Assembly (NCBI GenBank): GCA_964603595.1
Contig: CAZRVN010000001.1
Span: 152,151 to 216,150, forward strand
Direction of reading: 5' to 3'
DNA length: 64,000 nucleotides
Source: an uncultured Actinomycetota bacterium
GTDB lineage: Bacteria; Actinomycetota; Humimicrobiia; Humimicrobiales; Humimicrobiaceae
Shown here: piece after piece, positions 5,466-51,814 of the stretch
How the letters are laid out: each line of letters starts with the position of its first letter
How positions within the stretch are numbered: position 1 is the stretch's first letter
Translations under genes and position numbers: made by a program
Notes under the pieces: model-generated
The model's database searches: none
Seen by the model: only the letters and a program-made list of their open reading frames with translations
Told to the model about the DNA's origin: nothing

Positions 5466-6906
5466 GATATGGAAGGGAAGGATAAAAAAGAATACGGATA
5501 AAGAAGTAGAAAATTTTACTTCTTCAATAGAATCAGATATCAGTCTTTATGGTTATGATATAAAAGGAACAGCTGCTTATTCAGCAGGACTTTATAAAAT
5601 TGGGATAATTACAAAAGATGAGCTGGAAAAAATATTTTATGGCCTGAAAAAAATTAAGCTGGATATAGAAGAAGGAAAGGACATTGATATATACGAGTAT
5701 GAGGATATTCACAGTCTGGTTGAGAATGAACTTGGTAAAATAATAGGTGATGCCGCTATGAAAATTCATACTGGAAGGAGCAGGAATGACCAGGTAGTCC
5801 TGGATGAAAAATTATTTTTAAAAGATATTATACCAGCTGTCCTAAGCGATTTATTAATTATGCAGGATAATATTATGAAAAAAGCACAAGATACAATAGA
5901 TGTAATTATTCCTGCCTATACGCACCTGCAAAAAGCGCAGCCGGTACTTTTTTCACATTATCTTATGTCTTATTTTTATAAGTTTGACAGGGATACTGAG
6001 AATCTTTTTTATAACTTTGAAACATCTGATTCCCTGCCGGTAGGAGCTGCTGCCTGTACAGGGAGTGGATACGAACTGGACATTAAAATACTAAAAGAAA
6101 TTCTTAAATTCAAAAACATTGATGAAAACAGCATGGACACAGTGGGAAGCAGGGATTTTATTATAGATTTTGTATTTACGTGCAGTAAAATAATGCTACA
6201 CCTCAGCAGGTTGTGCGAGGATTTAATAATATACAACAGCAATGAATTTTCATTGATTGATATAGATGAATCATTCTGCACCGGAAGCAGTATCATGCCT
6301 CAGAAAAAAAATCCTGATGTTCTGGAATTAATAAGGGGTAAAAGCTCTCTAGTTATGGGAAATCTCATGCAATTGTTAATGATATTTAAAGGTCTACCGT
6401 CAACTTATAACCGCGATCTTCAGGAGGATAAAAAGATTTTATTCAGCGTGTACGAAGAAACAATATCCAGTGTAAATGTATTTTCAAGGTTAATTAAGAA
6501 AATAAAACTTAATAAGCTAAAAATAGAGAATTCGTTGAAAGAGGGATTTATGGAAGCTACCGATATAGCAGATTACCTTGTAAAGAAAGGTGAAAGTTTC
6601 AGGAAAGCTCATAATATTACAGGCAGCATAATAAGTTACTGTATAAATAAAAAAATATCTTTCAAGGATTTAAAACTAAAAGAGCTTAAAAAATATTCGT
6701 CCCATTTTGATAGTGATATCTATGATTATACAAATATTAACTCCTGTATATCCCATAAAAAGGTTGATTGCGGCACTGAAAAGGGGAGGGTAGTTTCGAG
6801 CATCAGTTCTGCAAAGAAAAAGGTAAGCAGTAATCAGCAAAAACTAAAGGACCTTAAAAAAAGGATACCTTCCATTGATAGTATATTTAGTTATATCGCA
6901 AAATAG
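5452..6906 (+). CDS. argH: Argininosuccinate lyase
   Basis: Fumarase/aspartase family signature (GSSIMPQKKNPD). Its start overlaps the argG stop. Confidence 0.92.
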   Translation: MMENKIWKGRIKKNTDKEVENFTSSIESDISLYGYDIKGTAAYSAGLYKIGIITKDELEKIFYGLKKIKLDIEEGKDIDIYEYEDIHSLVENELGKIIGDAAMKIHTGRSRNDQVVLDEKLFLKDIIPAVLSDLLIMQDNIMKKAQDTIDVIIPAYTHLQKAQPVLFSHYLMSYFYKFDRDTENLFYNFETSDSLPVGAAACTGSGYELDIKILKEILKFKNIDENSMDTVGSRDFIIDFVFTCSKIMLHLSRLCEDLIIYNSNEFSLIDIDESFCTGSSIMPQKKNPDVLELIRGKSSLVMGNLMQLLMIFKGLPSTYNRDLQEDKKILFSVYEETISSVNVFSRLIKKIKLNKLKIENSLKEGFMEATDIADYLVKKGESFRKAHNITGSIISYCINKKISFKDLKLKELKKYSSHFDSDIYDYTNINSCISHKKVDCGTEKGRVVSSISSAKKKVSSNQQKLKDLKKRIPSIDSIFSYIAK

Positions 6907-16923: not shown

Positions 16924-17598
16924 TTTAGAATCTCTTATTATATTTACTTGTATTATAGATTTTTTTCAATTTATATTAGCATTAGATATATAAAGTGTCA
17001 ATATTCACTTCTAGTAACAAAATTAATAAATATAATTAAAAAAGAAAAAAGTGATCAATATAATGAAAGATATAAAAAATTATAGCTATATTATTTTTGG
17101 TAATTCTAATGGAATAAAGTTTATATATAATTTTAATACTGAAGATTAATCTAATTATAGTCACAAAATAAAGATATTAGCTTTTTTATTAACGTATATT
17201 AAATAGAAAAGTGAAAAATATTATATGTGTCCTCTTTCTTGAAAATGAAAAATTAACAGAAGTAATTACCTCAATAAATTCAATAATTTTATTTATGATA
17301 CGAATTAAGATCGGTTTTGTAGAAAAAGATATAATTGATATAAATGGCAAATATCCTTCAGCTTATGTGTCCTATTTATATTACTGGTATAAAATATTAA
17401 TTGAATATGATAAAGGAGGTTGTAAATATTAAAGAAAAAAGAGATTTGCCTTTGAACTATAATATAAATCCTAAATTATAGTTACAGCACAGACAAATCT
17501 CAAAAAAAATCTATCAGAGCTAATTAAAAATGTAAAGAGGGAGGTGATTTAAAATATAAATAAAATATGATGAAGTTTTTATTATTTGCTGTTTTTAA

Positions 17599-18646
17599 TT
17601 GAAAGGATCTATAGTCTTTGTGATCTCTGTTTCAGTTATTATATCTTTTTCGCTGGCTGGATGTGGTGTTAAAACTACAGAGGAGGCTGGAACGGAAGCA
17701 CAGGAAGAACAGGTTTTTCTCGGATTGGCTGTACATGCAGTCCGTAACAGCTGGGAAGACCTTTACGTAAAGGCTTTTAAATGATACTGCCAGGAAAAAA
17801 GGGATAAAATAAACTTGGAAAGAAGAAGGTTATGAAGCCGCAATCCAGATAACCCAGGCAAAAAGATTGATCGATATGGGTATTAACGGCCTGGTTATCT
17901 CACCCTGGAACGTTGAAGCACTAACCTCGGTTATGTATTATGCAGAAGAAAAGGGTGTCCCGGTTGTCTGCACCAATACTACAGTCAACAGCAGTTATCA
18001 CTTAATGTTCGTAGGATATAGTGCCAAAAGAGGCGGAACACAACTGGGTGAAAAGATCGTTGAGTACCTGGAAGATAAGTACGGGGAAGCAAAGGGAACT
18101 GTTCTTGAATTATCTTCAGGGCTTGGTACCTCTGAAGATGTTATAAGAGGCGAAGGTTTTCATGAGGTTGTTGACCAGTATGATGGCAATAAGGTAATTA
18201 CCAAAATTGGTAAATCTGACCAGGAGGAGACCATTGTTCCGGCATTAAGTGTAACCAAAAACATATTTCTGGGTAGAGTCCTTATAAAAGATAAGATCCT
18301 AAAAGTCCTTGATACAAAAAAAATGCAGGAAAAGTCAAAAGAAGTACTTAAAGAACTCGGACTCCGGGTGTCTGCCGAGCAGGAAGTTAGATTCTGTTCC
18401 GGAGGAGAAAGGCAGGGTGTAGCAGTAGCACGTGCTCTGCTGTTTAAAGCAAAACTGGTTATTTTAGATGAACCAACCCGTGCTATCTCACCAACAGGGG
18501 TTAAGAAGGTAATGGACTTTATCAAGGGAATGAAAGACGAAGGTATCGCCGTTATTTTAATTTCCTATGTATTTCCAATAACTGACCGTTTTGTTATTCT
18601 TTCAAGAGGTGAGAAGATACTTGAGAAAAAACAGAAAGATACCTAG
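17599..18646 (+). pseudogene. Decayed sugar ABC transporter remnant: frameshifted lipoprotein-type periplasmic sugar-binding protein fused in-frame to an ABC ATPase C-terminal fragment
   Basis: Two ORFs of 61 aa and 259 aa. The first carries a lipobox (SLAGCG) and a PBP type I start. The second begins mid-domain with SBP sequence and ends with an ABC signature-like LSGGERQ plus Walker B ILDEPT. There is a frameshifted MKFLLFAVFN start just upstream. GC is visibly higher than in flanking DNA. Confidence 0.55.
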
Positions 18647-20427: not shown

Positions 20428-20682
20428 TTGATGAATAATTTAATTGGTATTTTAAAGAAAGAAGGCATTGATTCAGCCTGTGGGGAAATTGGTATTAATT
20501 TTGAGAAAATTTTTCATAGTGACCTTTGTAATAATCCATATAGAGAACATGCATGGTATGTTAACAATCACCCCGAAGTAATTGTTTTTAATGCTGTTCC
20601 TGATAAGGATAAACAGGATAGACTTTTCTGGGAAGAGTTGCTCAGGATGCGTAATAAAAAAAATTTTATCATCACATATTAA
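20428..20682 (+). CDS. Small hypothetical protein, possibly a gene remnant
   Basis: ORF with an AAAGGA RBS 10 nt upstream. No recognisable family. GC-richer, non-coding-looking DNA follows. Confidence 0.3.
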   Translation: MMNNLIGILKKEGIDSACGEIGINFEKIFHSDLCNNPYREHAWYVNNHPEVIVFNAVPDKDKQDRLFWEELLRMRNKKNFIITY

Positions 20683-20968
20683 CACTCTGGAGACCAAAGA
20701 ATTATGACGAGATTTATGAGGCACCCGAGCATGATGATATACATCCGTAACAAATTTTTGGAAATAAGTGGTACGTTGTAAATGATACTGATATGACACC
20801 TTTATTACTGCGTAGATAAGGGAATATATTACTATTTATCTAAAATTATTATTTTAAGAATTTAATATTTAAATTTAAATTTATAGTTTCTAAAAAATAT
20901 AAATTTTTTTCTCTTAAAGACCAGTGTAAGTTTATTAATATAATAAATTTTTTAAAAAAGGATAAAAA

Positions 20969-23278: not shown

Positions 23279-23537
23279 TTTAAAAATATATTATTCATAT
23301 TAAAATTTTATAAAGAATTTATGATGTTTCTTACTATACCTTTTAAAAAATTATTAATAAAAAAACGATATGGAGGTGATTGTTGTATGGAAAAAATGAG
23401 ATTTGCTTGTGACTTATAATATTAAAAAATATTAATCCCTGAGTCCAAACAAATCTCAATAAAAATCTACCAGAGATAATTTAGAAAGTAAAGCCAAGAA
23501 AGGAGGTTGATAAATAGGATAACAACATATTTTATTA

Positions 23538-24989
23538 ATGGTTTTTGTAATGAAAGGATTTAAAATGAAAAAATCATTATTACGAGGAATAATTTTTATT
23601 TTAAGCATATTAATTATAGCGTCATTATCATTATATGCTTGTAAAGAAGAAACAGATGGAGGAACAGACACGGGTGCAGTAGAAGCTGATGCTGACGCAG
23701 ATGCCGATGCTGATACCGGAGAAACTGTTACAATAACAATTGCAACGTTGAACAACCCGGATATGATGATTATGAAAGATTTATCTCCGAATTTTACTGA
23801 TGAAACAGGTATAGAACTTGAATGGGTTGTTCTTCCCGAAAATGAATTGCGCCAGAAAGTTACCGAGGACGTAGGACTAGGTGCAGGTCAATTTGACATT
23901 GTAACAATCGGTATCATAGAGGTTAAGAACTGGGTGAACTATGAATGGATAATTTCCCTGGAGCCGTTCTTTGAAGAGATGAGTGATGATGAAAAAGCAG
24001 AGTACGATTATGCTGATGTAATAGAATCTGTAAGGGAAGGTCTTAGTGTAGATGGTACATTATATGCACTTCCTTTCTACGGAGAATCAAGCATGATTTA
24101 CTACCGAAAAGACTTATTTGAAGATGCTGGTTTAACTATGCCTGAGGAACCAACATGGGATGATATTTATGATCTTGCCAAAGAACTACATGATCCTGGT
24201 ATTGAACAATATGGTTTAATTCTTCGTGGTCTTCCAGGCTGGGGAGAGAACATGGCTATATTTAGTACAATGATTAATGCATTTGGTGCTAGATGGTATG
24301 ATATGGAATGGAATGCCCAGTTTGATACACCTGAGATGAGAAATGCTTTTGAAATGTATTATAAGCTCATAAAAGAAGTAGCAGAACCAGGAGCAACCGG
24401 AGTAGGATTTACAGAAGGTTTAACACTTATGTCTCAGGGTAAAGGAGCTATATGGTATGATTCTACAGTTGCAGCGGGTACTCTAAACAATGAGAATGAC
24501 TCGGAAGTAGCAGGAAAAATCGGTTACGCACTCGCACCTTCAGCTGCTAAAGAAAATAACGGGTGGCTGTGGGCATGGTCTCTTGCTATGGAGGCTGCAA
24601 GCGATAATCCAGATGAAGCATTTGAATTCCTTACCTGGGCAACAAGCAAGGATTATAGGGAACTTGTTGCAGAATCAGAGGGCTGGGTTTCTGTACCTTC
24701 CGGTTCAAGGGAAAGTACATACACAAATCCCAATTATATAGAAGTTGCAGACTTTGCACCGGTTGTGTTGGATTCAATTAAAGCTGTAGATTATAACCAT
24801 CCAGCATTGGAGGAAACACCTTATATTGGTACACCATTCGTAGTATTTCCTGAGTGGTCTGAACTTGGTACAGAGGTTGCTCAGATAGTTGGTGCTTATA
24901 TTTCTGACGATATAACTACTGATGAAGCACTTCAGCAGTGTCAGGATATAGCAAATCAGGTAGCAAAAGAAGGAGGCTATCAGGAGTAG
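23538..24989 (+). CDS. Extracellular solute-binding protein family 1 (sugar ABC transporter substrate-binding lipoprotein)
   Basis: Signal peptide with lipobox (SLYACK). The true start is probably the ATG at 23565 (MKKSLL...). An (AD)5 linker follows, then a MalE-like SBP fold. GC is higher than in the neighbouring permease genes. Confidence 0.85.
   Translation: MVFVMKGFKMKKSLLRGIIFILSILIIASLSLYACKEETDGGTDTGAVEADADADADADTGETVTITIATLNNPDMMIMKDLSPNFTDETGIELEWVVLPENELRQKVTEDVGLGAGQFDIVTIGIIEVKNWVNYEWIISLEPFFEEMSDDEKAEYDYADVIESVREGLSVDGTLYALPFYGESSMIYYRKDLFEDAGLTMPEEPTWDDIYDLAKELHDPGIEQYGLILRGLPGWGENMAIFSTMINAFGARWYDMEWNAQFDTPEMRNAFEMYYKLIKEVAEPGATGVGFTEGLTLMSQGKGAIWYDSTVAAGTLNNENDSEVAGKIGYALAPSAAKENNGWLWAWSLAMEAASDNPDEAFEFLTWATSKDYRELVAESEGWVSVPSGSRESTYTNPNYIEVADFAPVVLDSIKAVDYNHPALEETPYIGTPFVVFPEWSELGTEVAQIVGAYISDDITTDEALQQCQDIANQVAKEGGYQE
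23685..23714 (+). repeat. Five tandem GCNGAY hexamers encoding an (Ala-Asp)5 linker
   Basis: gctgatgctgacgcagatgccgatgctgat. Confidence 0.8.
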
Positions 24990-25118
24990 CACTCTATCTT
25001 TGATAAAAATAATTATACGGGAGCATGGTTTTTAGCCTCAGTGTGTTCCCGTATTATAATATTATGTGTAATATTATAATATTTATATATAATTTAAAAA
25101 AAGACTGGATTAAATTAA

Positions 25119-26000
25119 ATGAAGAAAAATATAGGAAGCAGGTTGTTAACATTACCAGCAATTATTGTAGTTTTAATTGTAACACAAATTCCGATTATAA
25201 TAACTATTTATTACAGTTTATTTAGATGGAGTGTGGTAAGGCCAGACTTACCAAATAATTTTGTAGGCTTTAGTTATTATAAAGAATTATTAACAGGAGA
25301 TACTTTCTGGATTGTATTAAAAAATACAATAAATATTACATTTATACCACTGGCTATATGTCTTTTACTTGGAACGTTTCTGGCATTCTTGCTGTATCGT
25401 CCTTTTCCAGGTGTAGGAATTGCACGTACACTTTTAATTTCACCTTTTTTTATCATGGATTCAGTTATAGGTGTCTTCTGGAGAAACGTAATTATGGAAC
25501 CCACATATGGTCTGATTAGCCAAATCGGAAATTTTTTTGGTATCAGTTTAAAAAATCTTGAGCTACTAAGTCAGCATCCAATCCTTTTTATAAATACCCT
25601 CATTATATGGAAGTGGACCCCCTTCTTTATGCTGGTAGTCATGGCTGGCCTGCAGTCTATTCCAAATGAAGTAGTGGAAGCATCTTTAATTGATGGGGCA
25701 AGTACATGGGGAAGAATACAAAAGATAATTATTCCTATGATAATGAAATATATTACTATTAGTTTAATTTTAGGACTTATATTCATACTTAAAACATTTG
25801 GCCTTATATTCACAACTACTCTAGGAGGGCCCGGATTTAGCTCCACAAACTTTCCTTATTATGTTTATAGAAAGACATTTCTTGGATGGGATGTAGGAAG
25901 GGGCTCTGCAATTGCAGTTTTTGTTGTGATTATTTCTCTTGTGATAATTATGGCATTATTTAAATTCTTAAGAAAATCAATAGTGGAGGAAGAAATATGA
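25119..26000 (+). CDS. Sugar ABC transporter permease (MalF/UgpA-like)
   Basis: Six-TM permease with the EAA-like loop region (EASLIDGAS). Confidence 0.85.
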   Translation: MKKNIGSRLLTLPAIIVVLIVTQIPIIITIYYSLFRWSVVRPDLPNNFVGFSYYKELLTGDTFWIVLKNTINITFIPLAICLLLGTFLAFLLYRPFPGVGIARTLLISPFFIMDSVIGVFWRNVIMEPTYGLISQIGNFFGISLKNLELLSQHPILFINTLIIWKWTPFFMLVVMAGLQSIPNEVVEASLIDGASTWGRIQKIIIPMIMKYITISLILGLIFILKTFGLIFTTTLGGPGFSSTNFPYYVYRKTFLGWDVGRGSAIAVFVVIISLVIIMALFKFLRKSIVEEEI

Positions 26001-26812
26001 GAAAGACAGTTTCACCATTAGTTAGAATATTCGTTTTTATAATAGCTATAATATATTTCTTTCCAATTTTCTGGCTTATTCTGACAGGATTTAAACAGGA
26101 AGTTGATGTTGTTAACCTTACGCTTTTTTTTAATCCAACACTCGATCAATATAAACTAATATTTAGTGGAGGATTAGCAAAGTTTTTATTGAACTCGTTA
26201 TTTATCACATTTACTGCAACACTTCTTGCAATGGTAGTCGGAACACCTGCATCTTATGGAATCGTAATGATGTCAAGGATTAAAGCAGGGGGAGATAATA
26301 TTTTCTTCTGGTTCATATCTACGATACTTTTACCTCCGGTTTGTGTTGTTATTCCGGTATTTGTCGTATTGAATAGTATGGATATCCTGGATAACCACTG
26401 GAGTTTGATTTTTATTTATTCCGCAATAAACATTCCGATCGTTATATGGATGATGCGTTCTTTTTTTAAGGATATTCCTATTGAATTAATAGAATCTGCA
26501 AGGATCGACGGTGCTTCCGAAACGACTGCATTTTTGAAAATTGTCTTCCCATTAGCTCGAAGCGGTTTATCAGCCACGATTCTTTTATTAATAATTTTTA
26601 TCTGGAATGAGTTTTTCTTCGCTCTTAACCTTACCTATTACAGTGCTTCTACCTTACCTGTTTATGTATCGACTTTCATGACACAGGAAGGTTTATTCTG
26701 GGCAAAAATGAGCGCAATTTCGACCATAGCTATTCTTCCTCCAATAATTATTGGCTGGATTAACCAGAAACAATTAATTCGTGGAATGACTATGGGTGCT
26801 ATAAAGGGGTAA
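25997..26812 (+). CDS. Sugar ABC transporter permease (MalG/UgpE-like)
   Basis: EAA motif ESARIDGAS. Its start overlaps the previous permease's stop. Confidence 0.85.
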   Translation: MRKTVSPLVRIFVFIIAIIYFFPIFWLILTGFKQEVDVVNLTLFFNPTLDQYKLIFSGGLAKFLLNSLFITFTATLLAMVVGTPASYGIVMMSRIKAGGDNIFFWFISTILLPPVCVVIPVFVVLNSMDILDNHWSLIFIYSAINIPIVIWMMRSFFKDIPIELIESARIDGASETTAFLKIVFPLARSGLSATILLLIIFIWNEFFFALNLTYYSASTLPVYVSTFMTQEGLFWAKMSAISTIAILPPIIIGWINQKQLIRGMTMGAIKG

Positions 26813-51736: not shown

Positions 51737-51814
51737 TGGTCGGGACGAGAGGATTTGAACCTCCGGCCCCCAGTACCCCATACTGGTGCGCTAGCCAAAC
51801 TGCGCCACGTCCCG
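51737..51814 (-). tRNA. tRNA-Pro (anticodon GGG) with encoded CCA
   Basis: Manually folded cloverleaf: 7-bp acceptor stem CGGGACG/CGTCCCG, D-stem GCGC/GCGC, anticodon stem CCAGT/ACTGG with loop AUGGGGU (anticodon GGG), T-arm GGAGG-TTCAAAT-CCTCT, discriminator A, then CCA. Confidence 0.85.

Follow-up and report, generated by a model that had tools for sequence, protein, structure and literature searches.

A multi-copy leader and signal-peptide module preceding unrelated solute-binding protein genes in an uncultured sediment lineage

In a 64,000-nt stretch of DNA deposited as that of an uncultured Actinomycetota bacterium (GenBank assembly GCA_964603595.1, contig CAZRVN010000001.1, positions 152,151 to 216,150 of the forward strand; hereafter the window), two related leaders, which we call copy A and copy B, each precede a gene for a lipoprotein-type solute-binding protein (SBP) on the plus strand. 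They are surrounded by a polyol-utilisation cluster with genes for SorC, mannitol dehydrogenase, two FGGY kinases, a Zn-dependent alcohol dehydrogenase (Zn-ADH), a short-chain dehydrogenase/reductase (SDR), and two permeases, and the SBP loci behind the two copies are the only ones in the window. Both copies were found to belong to a multi-copy family of ~270–330-nt 5' modules that precede the SBP genes of ATP-binding cassette (ABC) and tripartite ATP-independent periplasmic (TRAP) transporters, whatever the mature fold of the protein, in an uncultured low-GC sediment lineage. The module looks like a lineage-specific, so far undescribed expression or control cassette.

A preliminary description of this DNA had reported a duplicated leader of about 115 nt, 80–85% identical between 17492–17610 and 23446–23562. 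Both stretches are real, lie where they were said to lie, and are related beyond shuffled sequence, with a global alignment score of 41 (shuffles -3.6 ± 5.4, maximum 11). The identity over these spans was measured as 71% (89 of 126 columns), and 85% is reached in the first 48 nt only. A 27-nt core, ACAAATCTCAANAAAAATCTANCAGAG, is present at 17493 and at 23449 and nowhere else in the window, with no occurrence expected. The size had been set too small. The likeness extends ~100 nt further 5', to a GGAGGT at 17415 and 23372, and takes in GAGATTTGC, common to both copies at 17441 and 23398, and a second common block, GAGATTTGCNTNTGANNTATAATAT, ~50 nt 5' of the core at the same two positions, which mark the start of a long hairpin (17441–17501 and 23398–23457). 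It also enters the signal-peptide codons, giving ~260 nt that can be aligned from GGAGGT to the signal peptide at 63% identity. The earlier start coordinate, 17492, thus falls within the 3' arm of the hairpin, and the 'TGAAAGGAT' named at that time is the true ribosome-binding site (RBS) of the SBP gene. That both copies stand immediately 5' of lipoprotein-type SBP genes of different families was borne out by Pfam, with a Peripla_BP_4 fragment behind copy A and an SBP_bac_1 protein behind copy B.

Read along the SBP strand, the alignment of the family gives the order of parts as a first Shine-Dalgarno-like sequence (SD1), an A-run, the hairpin, a 32-nt block, a second Shine-Dalgarno sequence (SD2), a spacer, the RBS, the ATG, the signal peptide with its lipobox Cys, and an acidic linker. 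SD1 has the form G(G/C)GAGGTGAT, with no conserved open reading frame (ORF) behind it. The hairpin is imperfect and 60–70 nt long, with the basal stem GAGATTTGyyTrTG / CACAAACAAATCTC and, in the main group of copies, the apical stem CTAATATAA / TTATATTAG. The 32-nt block (consensus AAAATyTNNNNGAGNTAATNNNNAANGTAAAG) has no indel in 16 sequences. SD2, GGAGGTGAT, is likewise an orphan and is followed by an AT-rich spacer of ~45–60 nt; a C/A-rich segment, ACACAAACAAA, with three ACA motifs lies in the leader 5' of the RBS. The working RBS, GAAAGGAT, stands 6–8 nt from the ATG. In the short-form relatives (loci L031–L033 and L037 of our set), the working RBS occupies the SD2 position, and the spacer and third SD are absent.

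In copy A, SD1 (AAAGGAGGTTG, 17412–17422, plus strand) aligns with SD1 of all family members and has no start codon 3–13 nt 3' of it; a window-wide scan found no start codon opening an ORF behind it and no mini-ORF. A 73-codon ORF with a GTG start does run through this point (17211–17432), its TAA lying at the position of the mini-ORF ATG of copy B, and it is probably a chance ORF in an AT-rich spacer. The hairpin of copy A, GAGATTTG to CAAATCTC (17441–17501), is assigned to the minus strand, with a minimum free energy of -15.7 kcal/mol on the plus strand and -21.8 kcal/mol on the minus strand, and our covariance model R1 scores it at 75.6 bits on the minus strand and 25 on the plus strand. 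The A-run that precedes it on the plus strand (17431–17440) is a U-tract after the stem on the minus strand. The indel-free block (AAAATCTATCAGAGCTAATTAAAAATGTAAAG, 17506–17537) follows, and then SD2 (GGAGGTGAT, 17540–17548, plus strand), a 9-nt match to the canonical SD/anti-SD consensus.

The gene behind copy A is in ruins. From 17599 to 17664 there remain an RBS remnant, GAAAGGAT (17601–17608), and a signal-peptide remnant with the lipobox LAGC and its Cys codon at 17662–17664; relative to the family, the ATG and the first ~9 signal-peptide codons have been deleted, and the lipoprotein start is cut down to a frame from TTG 17599 to a stop at 17784. The whole decayed cargo (17599–18646, plus strand) consists of Peripla_BP_4 SBP fragments (17599–17784 and 17867–~18230) in frame with the C-terminal part of an ABC ATPase, with support from tblastn. 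In the ORF 17867–18646 (Pfam Peripla_BP_4 at 3e-20, ABC_tran at 5e-12), the first ~120 residues are Peripla_BP_4 and the rest is the C-terminal half of the ATPase. This cargo is a pseudogene or decayed operon, and a deletion looks like the event that fused the SBP and ATPase remnants. The syntenic locus L004 has just a 410-bp spacer between the SorC and kinase genes at the position of copy A. Faster decay of the copy A leader as a consequence of pseudogene status was considered and rejected, with family-conserved columns deviating by 21.8% in copy A and 20.6% in copy B.

Copy B leads into an intact gene. Its SD1 (GGAGGTGAT, 23372–23380, plus strand) is followed by a 10-codon mini-ORF (ATG 23387 to TAA 23419, MEKMRFACDL) that is unconserved in the family. 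The hairpin, again GAGATTTG to CAAATCTC (23398–23457) and assigned to the minus strand, has energies of -18.7 (plus strand) and -20.4 kcal/mol (minus strand) and R1 scores of 22.9 and 72.7 bits, respectively; it can be extended by an optional pair, T23397–A23458, and an A-run lies at 23391–23396. Next come the 32-nt block (AAAATCTACCAGAGATAATTTAGAAAGTAAAG, 23462–23493), an orphan SD2 (AAAGGAGGTTGA, 23502–23507, plus strand), and the working RBS GAAAGGAT with the start ATG 23565 (23552–23567, plus strand), in an arrangement shared with all long-form leaders. The gene itself (23565–24989, plus strand) encodes an SBP_bac_1 protein of the sorbitol/mannitol type, with the family signal peptide MKKSLLRGIIFILSILIIASLSLYAC (23565–23642) and an acidic D/A/E linker. 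After the lipobox Cys (23640–23720), this linker is rich in D, A, and G/T (…TDTGAVEADADADADADTGE…), and most other members have an E/A/V-rich one (EEAVEEEAAEEE…); linker composition varies and the signal peptide is kept. Two permease genes follow (25119–26812), with no ATPase gene beside them. Many actinobacterial CUT1 systems use a shared MsiK-type ATPase, and by analogy the ATPase-less polyol ABC system at 23565–26812 would fit such an arrangement.

Further copies were recovered by running a pattern built from four leaders over metagenome contigs and over one genome per species, which gave 11 further distinct copies. An nhmmer search added a second copy in L030, and homologues of the signal peptide (a 46-aa profile and short fragments) led to L031–L033 and L035–L037. 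Altogether, at least 20 distinct copies came from the pattern scans and profile searches, so that the preliminary proposal to look for additional copies was answered in the affirmative, with conservation in relatives. The relatives are sediment metagenome-assembled genomes (MAGs), and the stretches fetched have ~35% G+C. Syntenic L004, whose SBP is 82% identical to that of copy B, has the leader before its SBP gene and no counterpart of copy A between the SorC and kinase genes; L007 (SBP 70% identical) has a diverged leader. Three pattern matches were set aside as chance: L021, which has none of the module's other features, and L012 and L029, which both fall within one apparent coding stretch.

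Wherever the gene downstream of a copy could be read, it encodes a lipoprotein SBP, and the copy stands directly 5' of it. In the related loci examined, the leader is present at 17 of 17 detectable SBP genes, and no leader was seen without one. The encoded start is near-identical across these genes (consensus MKKSLLWIxVLILSISxVAxFSLxGCKEEA, followed by the acidic linker), and what comes behind it is diverse. Pfam searches assigned Peripla_BP_4 cargo to L013, L020, L030b, and the copy A remnant; SBP_bac_1 cargo to copy B, L004, L007, L015, L016, and L030a; and DctP (TRAP) cargo to L017/18, L019, L023, and L025, the last by similarity of its product to that of L018. L031 carries Peripla_BP_5/6 cargo according to precomputed hits. 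When the signal-peptide profile was compared with 1.84 billion cluster representatives, 393 proteins matched at E ≤ 0.001. The 86 full-length profile matches comprised ~84 SBPs, with 49 SBP_bac_1, 30 Peripla_BP_4, 3 SBP_bac_5, and 1 SBP_bac_6 assignments, along with 1 beta-helix protein.

Two leaders can share a contig. In L030 they lie 3.5 kb apart (2178–2444 and 5711–5962), one before a Peripla_BP_4 SBP gene with two further ORFs on the same strand and the other before an SBP_bac_1 gene, and the same MAG has a third copy before a DctP gene (L025). In many metagenome contigs the leader lies within ~500 nt of the contig end (L013, L015, L016, L017, L019, L022, and L028), and L022 is cut inside it, which suggests that assemblies break at a multi-copy leader and that the copy number per genome is high. 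The preliminary description had allowed for a recent local duplication of one gene start. With leader identity at just 63% between copies A and B, and each nearer to copies in other genomes, the two are old members of the family and did not arise by such a duplication.

To assess constraint, we compared the window with its syntenic orthologue. From SD1 to ATG, the leader of copy B is 70% identical to that of L004 (shuffled 51 ± 2), while the spacer from the SDR stop codon to SD1 stands at 48% and another intergenic spacer at 50%, both at the random level. Because the leader so exceeds its neighbouring spacers, this sequence comparison indicates that it is under purifying selection. No other non-coding DNA of the locus is as well conserved as the module. 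Exchange between genes can be seen in the comparison of L013 (Peripla_BP_4) with L017 (DctP): identity is 96% over the 81 nt of signal-peptide DNA, 83% over the leader, and 81% over the linker, and drops to 48% once the mature part is reached. L017 and its DctP orthologue L023, by comparison, are 82% identical in the mature part, only 83% in the signal part, and 78% in the leader. The 5' coding part is thus exchanged between genes, and the earlier idea of a portable promoter, leader, and signal module is largely supported by these alignments: the leader is common to unrelated SBP genes, the signal peptide is near-identical, and exchange between cargoes is visible. As to the promoter part of that idea, no convincing promoter was found on the sense strand; candidates 5' of SD1, in the hairpin, and in the 32-nt block were considered, and none is conserved across the family. 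A recombination boundary in the repetitive GAA/GCA codons of the linker is plausible.

The same features bear on whether the module could be a selfish or neutral repeat, such as a hairpin resembling a miniature inverted-repeat transposable element or a duplicated gene start that hitch-hikes without any regulatory function. It is multi-copy and hairpin-forming, its A-rich flanks resemble target duplications, and many metagenome contigs break at or near it. Set against this are the strict one-to-one association with SBP genes at a fixed distance and orientation, and conservation that is unbroken between SD1 and the coding sequence, reaches well past both ends of the inverted repeat, and exceeds that of neighbouring spacers between species. 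Copies A and B are old, and a covariance-model search for stand-alone hairpin copies found none in 253 kb, all matches lying within SBP leaders. We regard a selfish repeat as very improbable.

On the minus strand, standard pairing holds in 91.8% of 330 alignment cells of the hairpin, which 2 of 500 shuffles matched. In four of the pairs both sides have changed, and sliding the partner by 1–3 columns lowers pairing to 40–53%. Distant members have arms that diverged and are still complementary, as in L007 (GAGATCTT..TTATGC / GCATAA..AAGATC) and in L031–L033. Judged from the alignment, the hairpin is real and is kept by compensatory changes. The preliminary description had suggested that aligned copies would tell a structured RNA from a protein operator, and the covarying arms do not favour an operator pattern. 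A DNA operator would consist of the inverted repeats GAGATTTG...CAAATCTC and CTAATATAA-N4-TTATATTAG, bound by a lineage-specific transcription factor that controls all SBP operons together. In the main group, the apical palindrome CTAATATAA/TTATATTAG is indeed conserved in sequence, beyond what pairing demands, and a common element before all uptake genes would suit global (e.g., catabolite) control. However, the palindrome is missing in L032, L033, and L037, though the stem is kept; the distant arms of L007 and L031–L033 change sequence and stay complementary, as a nucleic-acid hairpin would; and an asymmetry between G·U and A·C pairs, described below, is meaningless for double-stranded DNA. 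An operator is therefore unlikely in our judgment, if somewhat less so than a selfish repeat. Its narrower form, an operator or RNA leader for the adjacent SorC protein, was not upheld: copies also stand beside ROK-linked (L031), LacI-linked (L033), and TRAP SBP genes, and the SorC locus of L004 has no copy A.

Which strand carries the functional hairpin was judged from several measures. The RNAalifold consensus is -16.8 kcal/mol with 22 pairs on the minus strand and -4.6 kcal/mol with 16 pairs on the plus strand, and single-sequence energies favour the minus strand in most copies. Of the 210 cells of the basal stem, 166 hold Watson-Crick pairs; G·U pairs account for another 27 if the minus strand is read, and for 6 if the plus strand is. 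The 3' arm (ACACAAACAAATCTC) is almost invariant, and variation in the 5' arm consists nearly entirely of transitions (T to C, G to A). Since such transitions keep pairing only in the complementary RNA, the minus strand is favoured.

Signals resembling a transcription unit lie on that strand. In 15 of 19 leaders, TTTAC[T/A] is followed at exactly 17 nt by TA[A/G]A[T/A]T, with 5–7 nt to the G at the base of the stem, and 11 of these 15 have an extended TG. Copy A has a -35 element TTTACA (17536–17531), a 17-nt spacer, and TGa-TAGATT (17513–17508), 6 nt from the stem base, and is on our promoter-scan list; the block of copy B contains TTTACT (23492–23487), a 17-nt spacer, and TGg-TAGATT (23469–23464), also 6 nt from the stem base. 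The geometry is kept in L032 and L033 (TTTACT-17-TAAAAT-7-GAGATTTG) despite a diverged spacer sequence. Leaders with the geometry fold better on the minus strand in 14 of 15 cases, and the four without it (L007, L030b, L031, and L037) show no such preference. T-runs follow the minus-strand stem in most copies; the stem is long and AU-rich, and a simple terminator scanner made no call.

Combining these features, our leading interpretation is a cis-acting cassette for SBP expression and control, in which a sense leader stabilised by orphan SDs faces an antisense hairpin RNA. We hold it tentatively, giving it a little less than an even chance on the sequence patterns at hand. The orphan SDs (GGAGGTGAT) would bind 30S subunits without initiation and so protect the 5' region of the mRNA. 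The hairpin would act most probably as an opposite-strand RNA, made from the promoter-like TTTACT / 17 nt / (TGn)TAAATT, the stem, and the U-tract. Its predicted product is a G/U-rich antisense hairpin RNA of ~75–85 nt complementary to the leader, or at least a terminator of leftward transcription, with its 5' end at ~17501 in copy A and ~23457 in copy B and its 3' end within 17431–17440 and 23391–23396, respectively. Such an RNA could set a threshold on SBP expression or, plausibly, insulate the upstream genes. Recombination would spread the cassette among SBP genes and keep its copies alike, the 3' boundary of the exchanged unit falling in the acidic-linker codons.

Several points weigh against this interpretation. 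Every step of the mechanism is read from sequence, and the stabiliser role of the orphan SDs is drawn by analogy. The minus-strand hexamers match the consensus at just 4 of 6 positions each, in very AT-rich DNA where promoter-like sites are abundant (59 found against 42 expected in 7 kb), and the minus-strand U-tract may be a mere reflection of the A-richness of the leader. The hexamers are also mutually complementary (UUUAC/GUAAA), and the changes seen in them (C to U, A to G) would suit a weak helix on the plus strand. A conserved GAGATAAT within the proposed spacer is unaccounted for by a promoter, two loci (L027 and L037) prefer the plus strand, and SD1 lies beyond the proposed antisense terminator, with no sense promoter identified that would place it in the mRNA. 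Lastly, the Actinomycetota label of the relatives comes only from the titles of the depositors' records.

A rival reading is that the whole element, the hairpin with it, works in the SBP mRNA alone. The hairpin would then be a stem-loop that stabilises the 5' end, a site of RNase III/Y processing, or a mask acting in cis on the C/A-rich enhancer, and the minus-strand promoter, U-tract, and wobble signals would be by-products of A-rich composition. SD1, SD2, and the RBS are all on the SBP strand, with neither position nor orientation varying relative to the ATG, and the plus-strand hairpin still folds at -9 to -21 kcal/mol. Wobble pairing on the plus strand in UUUAC/GUAAA, one compensatory change in AUCUC/GAGAU, and the plus-strand preference of L037 and L027 point the same way, and it is known that ACA motifs and C/A-rich elements can enhance the translation of transporter mRNAs (PMC3879156). 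Yet the plus-strand consensus fold is weak (-4.6 against -16.8 kcal/mol), ~27 cells of the basal stem become A·C mismatches on that strand, the 5'-arm transitions preserve pairing only on the other one, and the exact 17-nt and 5–7-nt spacings in L032 and L033 are left unexplained. The small plus-strand helices are no better than shuffles: AUCUC/GAGAU, UUUAC/GUAAA, and AUCUC with SD2 pair well and hardly vary, and we keep them as possibilities only. We consider a purely sense-strand role a serious competitor, but less likely than a cassette with an antisense RNA.

The two orphan SDs, which match the canonical SD consensus perfectly, are the most widely retained features of the module, and SD motifs persist even in distant members from which the hairpin has gone (L035). 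In this genome GGAGGT seldom serves as an RBS: the window has 27 overlapping matches (~25 distinct sites), mostly intragenic, and 4 of the ~6 intergenic ones are SD1 and SD2 of the two leaders. Complementarity was judged against the canonical anti-SD, as the organism's own 16S gene lies outside the window. A region of L033 (1241–1310) has two GGAGGTG in the 60 nt that follow a LacI-family gene's stop codon, and the upstream region of L035 also has extra orphan GGAGGTG motifs, which suggests that the number of unused SDs per leader varies. A conserved leader peptide after SD1 was considered and rejected, with a canonical start codon in only 8 of 19 leaders and ORFs of 3–17 codons in variable frames. 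A small bottom-strand protein between the SBP start and the hairpin was also dismissed, as frames and stops, read by eye, are unconserved between copies.

These observations also bear on a ligand-sensing riboswitch or a leader-peptide attenuator. A long conserved leader with a hairpin, the possible alternative pairing of AUCUC with GAGAU or SD2, and the mini-ORF behind SD1 in some copies would be in keeping with such control. The cargo spans polyols, ribose-type sugars, TRAP substrates, and the branched-chain amino acid type, however, which makes a single ligand implausible, and covariation is confined to the long hairpin, the alternative helices not rising above shuffles. For attenuation, the scattered starts and the variable frame and length of the mini-ORF argue against a conserved role. 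Rfam 15 returned no match other than a tRNA in the window at the gathering threshold; at E ≤ 10, the leader gave chance hairpin matches to miRNA and snoRNA models with 15–17 bits against cut-offs of 45–53. Of all the explanations we weighed, this one seems the least probable.

A bolder extension of the antisense interpretation is possible, though we think it improbable and rate it somewhat below the purely sense-strand role. The near-identical G/U-rich ~80-nt RNAs from the convergent unit of each SBP gene would form a pool that pairs with the conserved C/A-rich leader of every SBP mRNA, so that only strongly induced uptake operons escape, and nutrient uptake would be subject to a threshold or order of priority across the whole genome. 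In the mRNAs that escape, the orphan SDs would serve as ribosome-dependent stabilisers, and recombination would transplant the cassette between unrelated SBP genes, the signal peptide moving with it.

The ingredients of these proposals are known. In the STAB-SD mechanism, a 30S subunit on an unused SD blocks 5'-to-3' decay (Agaisse and Lereclus 1996, Hue et al. 1995, both as cited in PMC7509114), and a polypurine 5' stabiliser is known in an actinobacterium, on the mycobacterial katG mRNA (PMC2358910). SD1 and SD2 have the sequence hallmark of a STAB-SD stabiliser, GGAGGTGAT with no conserved start codon or ORF behind it. As in Bacillus thuringiensis cryIIIA, B. subtilis, and katG, an unused SD-like sequence lies in the 5' untranslated region before a gene expected to need high expression; the module differs in having two sites per leader with a hairpin between them, common to a whole gene class, and the likeness is one of sequence.

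Small RNAs (sRNAs) offer a second comparison. AbcR1/2 of Rhizobiales control multi-target regulons of SBP mRNAs. In enterobacterial SBP mRNAs, ACA motifs are translation enhancers silenced by the sRNA GcvB (PMC3879156). As in both systems, many SBP mRNAs here share a C/A-rich element (ACACAAACAAAUCUC) and a G/U-rich complementary RNA is predicted (GAGAUUUGUUUGUG, the 5' arm of the minus-strand hairpin). The module's G/U-rich partner would lie in cis, on the opposite strand of every SBP gene, whereas theirs comes from one trans locus, and no pairing of the module's G/U-rich RNA with the RBS itself was seen. Closer in layout are the cis-antisense hairpin RNAs made from convergent promoters, namely IS10 RNA-OUT, R1 CopA, and pCF10 Anti-Q. 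Like the proposed unit, these are compact arrangements of promoter, stem-loop, and U-tract opposite the 5' leader of the controlled mRNA, and G·U pairs stabilise the antisense stem, leaving the sense copy weaker. They are single-copy and serve plasmid replication, transposition, or conjugation, whereas the putative unit here would be chromosomal, multi-copy, and transporter-linked.

In evolutionary terms, the Mycoplasma vsp/vlp lipoprotein families share an upstream region and signal peptide among their genes. The nearest parallel is the 'unit of evolution' of the Staphylococcus aureus lpl genes, with a common upstream region and prolipoprotein signal peptide (PMC2568036). In both, as in the module, upstream non-coding DNA and the 5' end of the coding sequence form a single conserved unit of exchange, and the rest of the protein differs. 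Those families, however, are paralogous and often phase-variable surface antigens, whereas the cargoes here are unrelated SBP folds with their own permease operons. No inversion sites, variable repeat tracts, or site-specific recombinase were noticed near the copies. Unlike the Mycoplasma arrangement of an expression site with silent cassettes, our copies are complete (leader, RBS, start codon, and signal peptide) and have their own downstream transporter genes. Intergenic hairpin repeats such as REP/BIME, Correia elements, and RUP/BOX are dispersed at varied intergenic sites. Like the module, they form hairpins, lie between genes in many copies, and may affect how stable transcripts are; the module differs in occurring at a single class of genes, always at the same place, and in continuing into coding sequence. 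In a narrow literature search, we did not find a description of one conserved untranslated leader and signal peptide serving unrelated ABC and TRAP SBPs across a lineage.

If the proposed role is right, one cassette of leader RNA, possible antisense RNA, and export signal would control the expression of nutrient-capture proteins in a whole sediment lineage. It would also be a rare case of a non-coding regulatory module and a signal peptide moving jointly between structurally unrelated genes, and a testable example of orphan SDs and cis-antisense hairpins outside model organisms. The leader is a practical marker as well, flagging SBP genes and identifying a repeat that breaks metagenome assemblies.

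Other features of the window were observed in passing. A tRNA gene at 51740–51814 (minus strand) is its sole Rfam match. The interval 20428–20800, which separates the first FGGY kinase gene from the Zn-ADH gene, has short ORFs only, on both strands. In the L004 counterpart of this region there is an ADH-like gene of 428 aa, compared with 350 in the window, preceded by a 116-aa ORF, and 20428–20800 may be another decayed or rearranged gene. Also within the polyol cluster, 28568–30919 encodes a 783-aa fusion of the E1 alpha (E1_dh) and E1 beta (Transket_pyr and Transketolase_C) parts of a dehydrogenase acting on 2-oxoacids or acetoin. Next to it on the 3' side, in the same cluster, is a lipoyl E2 gene (L001:11277–12527), and L004 has the identical type of fusion.

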